Source: an uncultured Chlamydiae bacterium (lineage in GTDB: Bacteria; Chlamydiota; Chlamydiia; Chlamydiales; JAJFMB01). Taken from it: a DNA stretch of 64,000 nucleotides. Below the pieces are notes generated by a model. That model was not told the DNA's origin, ran no database searches, and was given only the letters and a program-made list of their open reading frames with translations. A program made the translations under genes and the position numbers. The DNA lies in the NCBI GenBank assembly GCA_963696295.1, contig CAVOJR010000001.1:3008001-3072000 (forward strand), read 5' to 3'. This document shows, piece by piece, positions 43,990 to 45,486 of this stretch. The first letter of the stretch is position 1. The number at the start of each line of letters is the position of its first letter.

Positions 43990-45486
43990 TCAAAAAGTTT
44001 TCAGCTTGGGAAATTTAGACCAGAGATGTTCATGTTCCTCAGAAGCTTGAAGCAGCCGAAAGCGCGAATTGCAGGCTCTTTCCGTTCGAACTACTATGTT
44101 GCCCTGGCTTAACTCTGCTGCCACTTTTGCCCAAACGATATGCTTTTCATGCATCCGTTTCTGAATGAGGGTGAGAAGCTGCCTATCTTCCTGATGGCTC
44201 CAACCCGGAAATTTTTTTGTCGCTTTGTACGCCGCTGCGGCTTTTAGTTTAGAACCTTGCAACACTTTATAGCGCGCAACACACGCCGTTCGACTGCGGA
44301 AAATGCCCTTGTGATGGAGTGCCTCCCGCAATTCCTCTGCCACTTTCTGCCACCCGATCAGAACCGATTTTTTCCCCTTCACGATATTTAGCAACTGATG
44401 ATCTTCCTTAGGCGTCCAAAAATTGTATTGAGCCTGCTTTGCCGCTTCTGCTGGAGGTTCGGTGGTTTGCCTATTCCTCTTTTCAGTGGCAGGGGCTGTT
44501 GTATTATCGGCAAGGGCGGTCAGCTCTTTCAACAAGCCTGGGCCCCTCTGCGCGGGAGGAGCCGACGCAAGGGAAACCCGTTTCTTCATTTCAGTGATAG
44601 GAGCTGCTGCACCATCGGCAAGGGCGGTCAGCTCTTTCAACAAGCCTTGGCCCCTCTGCGCGGGAGGAGCTGACGCAAGGGAAACCCGTTTCTTCATTTC
44701 AGTGATAGGAGCTGCTGCACCATCGGCAAGGGCGGCCAGCTCTTTCAACAAGCCTGAGCCCCTCTGCCTGGGAGGAGCTGACGCAAGGGAAACCCGTTTC
44801 TTCATTTCAGTGATAGGAGCTGCTGTACCATCGGCAAGGGCGGCCAGCTCTTTCAACAAGCCTGAGCCCCTCTGCCTGGGAGGAGCTGACGCAAGGGAAA
44901 CCCGTTTCTTCATTTCAGTGATAGGAGCTGCTGCACCATCGGCTAGAGCCGCCAGCTCTTTCAACAAGCCTGAGCCCCTCTGCCTGGGAGGAGCTGACAC
45001 AAGGGAAACCCGTTTCTTCATTTCAGTGATAGGAGCTGCTGTACCATCGGCTAGGGCCAACAAGCCTGAGCCCCTCGTCGGTTTGGCGGGAGTGGGCTCC
45101 TGAATTGGAGGGAGTGCCGCGGCCGGAGGCGCTGAATCATGTATTAAATATAAATCGACAGGGTCTTGTAAAGGGTCGCATAGGCCGCCCTCCTCTTCCC
45201 GCTTAAGGCTTGCCATAGATAAACTAGGATACTCGATATCCTCAAACAGTATGATTTCATTATTCCCGTTTGGAAAATCATGAGAATTAAGGGCATGATA
45301 GACATTCATCGGCGGCATGGGGTATAGGTTTTGTTGCCGGCCAAAATCTGTCCGAGCCGCCCAACCGTTGTGATTCTGCTGCAGGGCATACGAGGCAAGA
45401 TTTTGTTGCAAATAAAAATCTTGCTTTTCATCCCCTGTTGACTGGGAGTAATCTCTCGGATTGAATTTTCCTGCGTCGACTTGCAT
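43990..45486 (-). CDS. Tandem-repeat protein with two C-terminal Myb/SANT-like domains, candidate nucleus-directed effector
   Basis: WTPKEDHQLL...W.KVA...RSRTAC..RY and WSHQEDRQLL...W.KVA...RTERAC.SRF. Confidence 0.8.
   Translation of the reverse strand: MQVDAGKFNPRDYSQSTGDEKQDFYLQQNLASYALQQNHNGWAARTDFGRQQNLYPMPPMNVYHALNSHDFPNGNNEIILFEDIEYPSLSMASLKREEEGGLCDPLQDPVDLYLIHDSAPPAAALPPIQEPTPAKPTRGSGLLALADGTAAPITEMKKRVSLVSAPPRQRGSGLLKELAALADGAAAPITEMKKRVSLASAPPRQRGSGLLKELAALADGTAAPITEMKKRVSLASAPPRQRGSGLLKELAALADGAAAPITEMKKRVSLASAPPAQRGQGLLKELTALADGAAAPITEMKKRVSLASAPPAQRGPGLLKELTALADNTTAPATEKRNRQTTEPPAEAAKQAQYNFWTPKEDHQLLNIVKGKKSVLIGWQKVAEELREALHHKGIFRSRTACVARYKVLQGSKLKAAAAYKATKKFPGWSHQEDRQLLTLIQKRMHEKHIVWAKVAAELSQGNIVVRTERACNSRFRLLQASEEHEHLWSKFPKLKTF
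44480..45076 (-). repeat. Coding tandem repeat, 108-bp (36-aa) unit, about 5.5 copies
   Basis: Unit ALADGAAAPITEMKKRVSLASAPPRQRGSGLLKELA; TTCAGTGATAGGAGCTGCTG recurs every 108 bp. Confidence 0.95.

Follow-up and report, generated by a model that had tools for sequence, protein, structure and literature searches.

The Myb gene and its product

The DNA analysed here (the window) is a 64,000-nucleotide stretch from an uncultured Chlamydiae bacterium (contig CAVOJR010000001.1, positions 3,008,001 to 3,072,000), and the subject of this work is a minus-strand gene within it whose product, referred to below as P0001, carries two Myb domains. The gene is a single open reading frame (ORF) of 498 codons without introns. 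Its parts, and one ORF that overlaps it, are listed below (aa, amino acids; NLS, nuclear localization signal).

43990-45486 (-): whole Myb gene, 498 aa (P0001); from the ORF, Pfam and structure models
45307-45486 (-): residues 1-60, Q/N-rich N-terminus, candidate type III signal region; from composition, with a putative role in secretion
45082-45306 (-): residues 61-135, acidic, proline-rich disordered segment studded with aromatic residues and Leu; from composition and model
44474-45057 (-): tandem array of a 108-bp/36-aa unit; from Tandem Repeats Finder
44470-44481 (-): KRNR, residues 336-339, a weak match to the minimal NLS pattern K-[KR]-x-[KR]; from pattern matching
44257-44421 (-): Myb repeat 1, about residues 356-410 (W357, W379, Y406), net charge +6; from Pfam and model
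44047-44202 (-): Myb repeat 2, about residues 429-480 (W429, W452, F476), net charge +4; from Pfam and model
43993-44046 (-): C-terminal extension, two short helices, LW-x-KFP-x-LK; from model and homologues
44462-45103 (+): ORF of 213 aa, treated as a shadow of the repeat

P0001 thus runs from disordered N-terminal two-thirds through the 36-aa repeat array to two C-terminal Myb repeats. An earlier note on this DNA, made by a model from the sequence alone, had described the N-terminus as rich in Q, N, P and acidic residues, and the composition agrees: Q and N make up 23% of residues 1-60, while residues 61-135 contain 17% D+E and 13% P and have a net charge of -10. The latter segment is a candidate activation-domain-like region. 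In a full-length model built from an alignment of only 2 rows, nearly all of residues 1-354 have a predicted local distance difference test score (pLDDT) below 50, which fits a disordered state of this region, although at such a depth it is weak evidence. Matches to P0001 in the ESM Atlas, with top scores of 0.84, are taken as leads only.

The two tandem Myb domains that the earlier note proposed were recovered by Pfam: PF13921 and PF00249 match two stretches each, with 36.9 and 34.0 bits against cut-offs of 22.9 and 24.4, respectively. The fold itself is reproduced by an AlphaFold2 model of residues 346-498 (31-row alignment, mean pLDDT 86.4), which consists of two three-helix units, a linker helix and short C-terminal helices. 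The helices of repeat 1 span residues 359-370, 379-390 and 399-410, and those of repeat 2 span residues 431-443, 452-460 and 469-481. The linker between the repeats is 19 residues long and holds the extra helix. Since pairs of the c-Myb type have a linker of about 7 residues of the L-N-P type, a canonical R2R3 arrangement is ruled out.

The best fold matches were NgTRF (Z 7.5, 2.6 Å, 71 residues aligned), Sap1 (Z 7.4), GT-1 (Z 7.1) and Zeste (Z 7.0). These telobox, trihelix and MADF-like variants (2qhb, 6ext, 2jmw and 5cqq) are the closest to repeat 2 together with the C-terminal extension, at a root-mean-square deviation (rmsd) of 2.0-2.6 Å; identity is only 13-21%, and the scores are tied and below 8. 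The extension, which is conserved in the homologues P0002 and P0003, is included in the match to the plant telobox domain. SANT domains of CoREST, ISWI, MTA1, DMAP1 and EP400-type subunits reached Z 5.5-7.1, level with the DNA binders, and the EP400/TIP60 SANT-type chain (Z 7.1) is tied with the telobox, Sap1, GT-1 and Zeste matches. The top rows of a Foldseek search were Cdc5, SNAPC4 and a Trichomonas Myb (E 0.02-0.1). In a phmmer search of PDB sequences, the Myb region of P0001 alone gave 0 matches at E<=10. A 14-row profile, made from 12 chlamydial Myb proteins, the Myb region of the window and P0002, retrieved c-Myb (1h88) at 3e-38, followed by SNAPC4 and Trichomonas Mybs.

With the eukaryotic multi-repeat Mybs (c-Myb 1h88, SNAPC4, Trichomonas Myb2/Myb3 and Cdc5) P0001 shares tandem, Trp-spaced three-helix repeats that match PF00249 and PF13921, basic recognition helices and an acidic disordered region outside the domain. 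It differs from them in that its gene is bacterial, its repeats are C-terminal, have long loops and are separated by the longer, helical linker, and the two repeats taken together superpose at an rmsd of only about 7 Å.

When the Myb region was compared with 1.84 billion representative proteins, 7 matches were obtained, P0001 itself included. The closest homologue, P0002 (490 aa), is 66% identical across the Myb region, while its linker has diverged. The two proteins have in common the start, the C-terminus and two linker motifs of residues 61-135 (NLYPMPPMNV and DP-x-x-LYL); directly after the shared start P0002 has an extra Myb repeat that P0001 lacks. P0003 has 5 Myb repeats, both of its ends are common with P0001, and its C-terminus carries KRKK. 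P0004 and P0006 are more distant. P0005, of 688 aa, begins like a signal peptide and holds 9 Myb repeats in tandem. A related-locus search with the Myb region found no relative among genome contigs or metagenome contigs.

Which bases the repeats might read was approached through c-Myb, for which one study (PMC3203581) names K128, E132, K182, N183, N136, N179, N186 and S187 as base readers. Mapped on the c-Myb sequence, these residues define five columns of the repeat, which in P0001 are occupied by T/V/A/K/V (repeat 1) and R/N/S/R/L (repeat 2). K128 and E132 are replaced by T and A in repeat 1, and K182 and N183 by N and S in repeat 2, so that canonical c-Myb base reading is ruled out. The recognition helix of repeat 1, RSRTACVARYKV, has apolar residues at several of the base-reading positions; that of repeat 2 is RTERACNSRFRL. 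The third helices are rich in Arg and Lys, and the whole Myb region has a net charge of +15. Recognition helices are the best-kept part of P0001 against P0002. Since the base-reading residues are nearly the same in P0002 and unlike those of c-Myb, a conserved target other than the c-Myb site is suggested. Judged by these residues, repeat 2 would be the likelier DNA reader of the two. SANT domains have an acidic or neutral recognition surface, and the charges of +6 and +4 per repeat, which are sequence charges only, do not fit this histone- and protein-binding subtype.

The 36-aa array was described in the earlier note as about 5.5 near-identical repeats, and Tandem Repeats Finder found nearly that: 5.4 copies of a 108-bp period at 44474-45057, with 94% matches, zero indels and a score of 986. 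Only one other tandem array was found in the window, with a score of 50. The array contains KKRVSL five times and the helix motif GLLKEL[AT]ALAD five times, plus a truncated first copy, and its copies differ from one another by silent as well as replacement changes. The amphipathic LLKELAAL helix ascribed to each repeat is there as a motif in every copy, but its amphipathicity is modest: among 11-mers of the genome, its hydrophobic moment ranks at the 81st percentile. P0002 carries 2 copies of the helix motif, while P0003, P0004 and P0006 have none; the array is therefore a recent, lineage-specific expansion and not the core of the system, and by this comparison the helix motif predates its five-fold amplification.

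The functions proposed for KKRVSL did not survive. Docking of protein phosphatase 1 (PP1) takes an RVxF pattern, [RK]-x(0,1)-[VI]-{P}-[FW], conserved and in a disordered region; KKRVSL has L where F or W is needed, and the sole RVxF match of P0001 (KHIVW) falls within Myb repeat 2. Among the chlamydial Myb proteins described below, 11 of 54 match RVxF against 11.2 expected, i.e., at the level of chance. A conserved kinase site is likewise rejected: the equivalent stretches of P0002 are EKRVVT, DKKVVP and EKRVVL, all three without the serine. Nor is KKRVSL NLS-like, since it fits none of the NLS patterns tested; in P0001 only KRNR at residues 336-339 meets even the minimal one.

A class of chlamydial Myb proteins

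The window gene belongs to a wider, patchy and fast-evolving class of chlamydial Myb proteins, which the earlier note missed and which is the more important finding. PF00249 was found in at least 24 of 401 Chlamydiota genomes (at least 20 of them over the cut-off) and in at least 20 of 212 genera; these counts are floors, since scoring covered no more than 17 candidates in each genome. By family, it was present in at least 11 of 46 genomes of one family (f6), and none was found in any of the 30 genomes of another (f4; 1.0-1.2 Mb), presumably the Chlamydiaceae. It was also not found in the one genome searched from the same family as the window. In the sister phylum represented by G402 (record titled Pirellulales), 1 of 301 genomes matched, the seed itself, with 0 over the cut-off. 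A search of the Chlamydiota with our own alignment (A6), which is less sensitive than PF00249, retrieved 17 of 401 genomes at E<=1e-4.

In several chlamydial genomes the Myb genes form tandem clusters. Three further clusters of this kind were noted (L144 in G188, L146 in G376 and L147 in G127), among them a 1420-aa open frame that joins one Myb unit to a very long tail rich in Ser and Lys. For a four-repeat chlamydial member, the matches were first its own close relative and then, among named proteins, largely eukaryotic 3R-type Mybs at 25-45% identity. P0012 (WP_068471383.1), from a 'Candidatus Protochlamydia' record, is automatically annotated as 'SANT/Myb-like DNA-binding domain-containing protein'; of 10 proteins queried for database names, 3 were named, two of those 'hypothetical'. 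A tblastn search of plasmids with a canonical chlamydial Myb gave no match.

The statement that Myb/SANT domains are eukaryotic modules proved too strong. Bacillus proteins of the RsfA/GerR (YlbO) type (TIGR02894) pass PF00249, and in endosymbiotic Clostridia (the 'small genome clade') the eukaryotic-like genes include Myb-like transcription factors according to Takahashi et al. (2023; PMC10579323), who state that such proteins occur in Legionella and Chlamydiota too. According to the same paper, 20 of 42 eukaryotic-like genes of those Clostridia have signal peptides and Sec export is proposed. Its main text gives Mybs one sentence and does not analyse these genes. The chlamydial Mybs differ in being without hydrophobic signals. 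Multi-repeat Myb-like proteins with shorter units of about 40 aa, mostly in a separate tree group, were also noted in records titled Lachnospiraceae, Clostridiales, Lactobacillales, Oscillospiraceae and Pirellulales (L132, L134, L135, L140 and L141).

When single repeats were scored with five profiles, the chlamydial profile gave the highest score for 15 of 16 repeats of the query group; it also had the most rows of the five. The window repeats gave 28.8 and 39.0 with it and 14.8 and 9.3 with the RsfA profile, which has only 3 rows.

A hint of what these proteins recognize came from one related chlamydial genome (L002, L025, L122, L123 and L125), which has a cluster of at least 7 Myb genes and one more elsewhere. 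Each of these genes encodes 3-14 near-identical Myb repeats of about 51 aa. After removal of the first repeat of each gene and of duplicates, 45 unique repeats of the 53 found were compared. The five c-Myb base-reading columns, which were fixed from PMC3203581 after the entropy profile had been seen, have a mean entropy of 2.35 bits (3.25, 2.64, 2.35, 1.97 and 1.55 bits) versus 0.56 elsewhere. The four most variable of the 41 columns are all among these five, and only 4 of 201,376 five-column sets reach 2.35 bits. The proportions of nonsynonymous and synonymous differences (pN/pS) are 0.454/0.416 at the base-reading columns versus 0.095/0.254 elsewhere; the repeats are related to each other and may recombine. 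This pattern is suggestive of selection on DNA specificity and hints at a code like that of the transcription activator-like (TAL) effectors.

Signals for export and nuclear entry were examined across 24 genomes, in which 54 chlamydial Myb proteins were left once ORFs open at the 5' end, those below 120 aa and two likely fragments had been dropped. Outside the Myb domains, 17 of the 54 have a strict NLS-like pattern, where shuffling predicts 3.5 and 90 of 2352 control proteins have one; the minimal pattern is present in 41, versus 16.1 expected and 595 of 2352 controls (25%). Type III signals are typically rich in S/T/N/P/Q and poor in K/R and L. In residues 2-26 of the class proteins, S/T/N/P/Q amount to 0.37 per genome versus 0.255, and K/R and L are low. 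By a crude score of N-terminal composition, not a trained predictor, 33 of the 54 lie above the 90th percentile of their proteome; P0002 and P0003 both stand at the 92nd percentile and P0001 at the 80th. Taken over the relatives, these statistics favour export and nuclear targeting.

A second line bears on export. In an unrelated lineage of small genomes (that of G401), a hydrophobic, signal-like segment opens 7 of 9 Myb proteins, versus 1 of 56 chlamydial ones. Since such a segment would be useless to a cytoplasmic regulator, Myb proteins appear to be exported in some bacteria, in this lineage probably by a route other than the chlamydial one. The lineage was observed to carry canonical two-repeat Mybs in G401 and four relatives of 0.8-1.2 Mb (L129, L158 and L164-L169), i.e., in 5 of 61 related small genomes; the L129 record is titled 'uncultured Rickettsiales bacterium'. 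No link between Myb genes and nucleotide translocases was found among the 61 genomes: 0 of the 5 Myb-bearing ones and 4 others have a translocase.

Proposed action and competing explanations

On balance, P0001 is probably a type III-secreted mimic of a transcription factor (a nucleomodulin) of an environmental chlamydia. The disordered N-terminus would direct it to the type III system for delivery into a host that is probably a protist, and KRNR, the repeated KKR and the +15 Myb region would carry it into the nucleus. There the two basic, telobox/trihelix/Zeste-like Myb repeats, whose fold is seen in the model, may dock their helices on a host DNA site other than that of c-Myb. The acidic segment and the LLKELAAL helices could then attract co-activators or co-repressors of the host, or titrate them, with an avidity that the recent five-fold amplification of the repeat would raise. 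The earlier suggestion of a secreted nucleomodulin is partly supported, more by the class, which is enriched in NLS-like clusters and secretion-like N-termini, than by P0001, which is unremarkable on both counts.

The genome is compatible with this proposal. It encodes 4 nucleotide translocases, and of the three type III components tested, SctN (over the cut-off) and SctJ are intact, which together indicate an intracellular bacterium with type III secretion, as far as gene content can tell. Eukaryotic-like families of Parachlamydiaceae have been shown to carry type III signals (PMC4209131). The chlamydial nucleomodulins NUE (a SET-domain protein) and SINC and the expanded F-box/BTB families NEX/PEX are eukaryotic-like or nucleus-directed type III substrates, with expansions of the birth-and-death kind (PMC7819608, PMC4436835, PMC4209131). 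In those texts these proteins modify histones, bind the nuclear envelope or act in ubiquitination, and none is described there as a sequence-specific DNA reader. The functional model we propose for P0001 is that of the TAL effectors and HsvG/HsvB, which are injected by type III systems, bear NLSs and are DNA binders with repeats (PMC7819608). Their fold is unrelated. Unlike the TAL repeats, the 36-aa array is not the DNA reader and has near-identical copies without a variable di-residue; membership of the TAL family is rejected, no such family being among the Pfam matches of P0001 at E<=1.

Several observations weigh against the proposed role. P0001 itself has no strict NLS match, only the minimal KRNR, and its N-terminal score is no higher than the 80th percentile; any disordered protein that binds DNA may show basic clusters and S/T/N/P/Q-rich ends too, and the genomes behind the class statistics are related and not independent. 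The fold scores are middling, with no Foldseek match at E<=0.001 and no Z>=8, and repeat 1 shows V/A/V at three base-reading positions. A tree of 172 single repeats (45 columns), built without P0005 and P0007, without most repeats of the arrays and with a minimum score of 22 bits (25 bits for eukaryotic repeats), has 7 of 169 inner branches supported and does not resolve the donor of the domain or its number of origins. The five Myb-bearing genomes of the G401 lineage lack a nucleotide translocase, so that an intracellular lifestyle there is without that marker. Finally, the third type III component, SctV, is broken over three frames in this assembly. Since the essential rpoB is likewise in many pieces (G000:C1:256120-258152 and 2144979-2148732 for the two genes), we read these breaks as likely local indel errors of the assembly.

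P0001 might instead be a secreted nuclear protein that acts by protein or chromatin contacts, as a SANT-like domain or decoy that binds nucleosomes or host Myb partners, or as a nonspecific coat on DNA. The apolar residues at the base-reading positions of repeat 1, the SANT domains tied with DNA binders in the fold search and the many short helices supplied by the repeat array would all suit such a role. Both repeats are net basic, unlike the acidic surfaces of SANT domains, and variation in the related array is concentrated on base-reading positions, and we regard this alternative as unlikely.

It is also improbable, in our judgement, that P0001 is a regulator kept inside the bacterium, for instance one of the developmental cycle, analogous to Bacillus RsfA/GerR. 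That bacteria own Myb-like regulators, some of them passing PF00249, tells against secretion of P0001, as does its lack of a strong export signal or NLS; multi-repeat Myb-like proteins of other bacteria (L132, L134, L135 and L141) point the same way. The RsfA/GerR proteins are about 160 aa long and have just one Myb-like unit, at the N-terminus, and P0001 is matched by none of TIGR02894, NF010534 and NF010535 at E<=0.1, whereas the control L137 matched TIGR02894 at 2.6e-25. The higher scores of the window repeats with the chlamydial than with the RsfA profile agree with this, and a disordered arm of 350 aa, patchy presence and local expansions fit effectors better than core regulators.

A decaying relic of horizontal transfer, with an array grown by slippage without selection, is highly unlikely. 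The N-terminal Myb repeat of P0002 and P0003 is indeed missing from P0001, a copy of IS607 adjoins the gene, codon usage is in the lower 15% of the genome, and the repeat copies vary by silent and replacement changes alike. Against this, all 498 codons form an open frame, P0002 shows 66% identity in the Myb region though the linker has diverged, and short-read contigs of two studies agree with the gene at 99-100%.

Eukaryotic DNA mis-assembled into a bacterial genome, for which local frameshift errors and eukaryote-like domains might speak, is largely refuted and hardly credible: the intron-less gene lies amid bacterial genes on a 3.298-Mb contig, has 52% GC and an ordinary third-position GC (GC3, 27th percentile of the genome), one short-read contig crosses its junction with the neighbouring TetR gene, and no named eukaryotic protein is among the 7 Myb-region matches, of which P0007 is labelled 'archaeon'.

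A type III-injected transcription-factor mimic thus stays our preferred explanation for P0001, and from the arrays a bolder proposal can be made, which we put forward only tentatively. Environmental chlamydiae may have made of the eukaryotic Myb repeat a class of transcription factors that are injected into the host and read specific sequences, which would give bacteria, besides the TAL effectors, another means of controlling host promoters. In at least one lineage, the pattern R-T-x-X33-Q-C-X36-X37-x-Y-X40-X41 may diversify at base-reading positions so as to form a modular, readable DNA code. The window gene would be a two-repeat member with an amplified cofactor-recruiting arm.

Known bacterial mimics of transcription factors come mostly from plant pathogens and Anaplasmataceae. 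If the proposal is true, a Myb class in about 5-6% of sampled Chlamydiota would give symbionts of protists a direct way to rewire host genes. The 'Candidatus Protochlamydia' member P0012 may offer a cultured model, and arrays that follow a code would be a natural data set for Myb-DNA recognition and possibly a programmable scaffold. No study of chlamydial Myb proteins was found in the literature searched, outside which most subscription papers fall, and the nucleomodulin literature searched does not mention Myb. The Myb domain had been noted in such bacteria before; the breadth of the class, its anatomy and the diversifying arrays were not found in print. We conclude that P0001 is genuine and bacterial, with two Myb repeats of a non-canonical kind, and that it leads to a class of effector-like chlamydial proteins which seems to have gone unstudied.

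Genomic surroundings

The contig that holds the window (C1, 3.298 Mb) belongs to a two-contig genome that is 97.4% complete and 1.5% contaminated. The neighbours of the Myb gene are as follows.

43349-43984 (+): TetR-family gene, convergent, ending 5 bp from the Myb stop; from Pfam and the junction contig
45756-48043 (+): IS607-family element, about 270 bp upstream of the Myb gene; from the serine transposase model NF033518 over the cut-off and a TnpB-like gene

Contamination is unlikely in view of the chromosomal location, the independent matching contigs and the bridged TetR/Myb junction. Short-read contigs from 4 runs of 2 studies match parts of the Myb gene, with no single contig spanning the repeat array, and contig X4-15 covers 43919-44069, over the TetR/Myb junction, without differences. 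A promoter scan for the Myb gene gave 8 consensus-like sites versus 1.3 expected, with only weak 9/12 matches upstream, and was not used.

A second, near-identical IS607 element lies in the window at about 7940-10231 (-), and the chromosome has 4 full copies and 1 partial copy that are 99.5-100% alike. In the 501-aa TnpB-like protein of the element, whose score is under the guided-TnpB cut-off, a coiled coil is inserted close to the N-terminus. At 49212-49637 (-) the window encodes a small haem/steroid-binding protein of the cytochrome b5-like kind, which exceeds the PF00173 cut-off and has a hydrophobic segment at its N-terminus.

Elsewhere in the genome, the second contig (135 kb) carries three tandem ORFs of 140, 149 and 156 aa on the minus strand (G000:C2:3325-4725; L157:1829-3226), each of them containing a single divergent Myb-like unit that exceeds the PF13921 cut-off in one ORF and is weak in the other two. 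An ORF made of a tandem 19-aa unit at G000:C1:248728-249147 (+), either genuine or produced by the assembly, lies just before a gene that starts with the same sequence.

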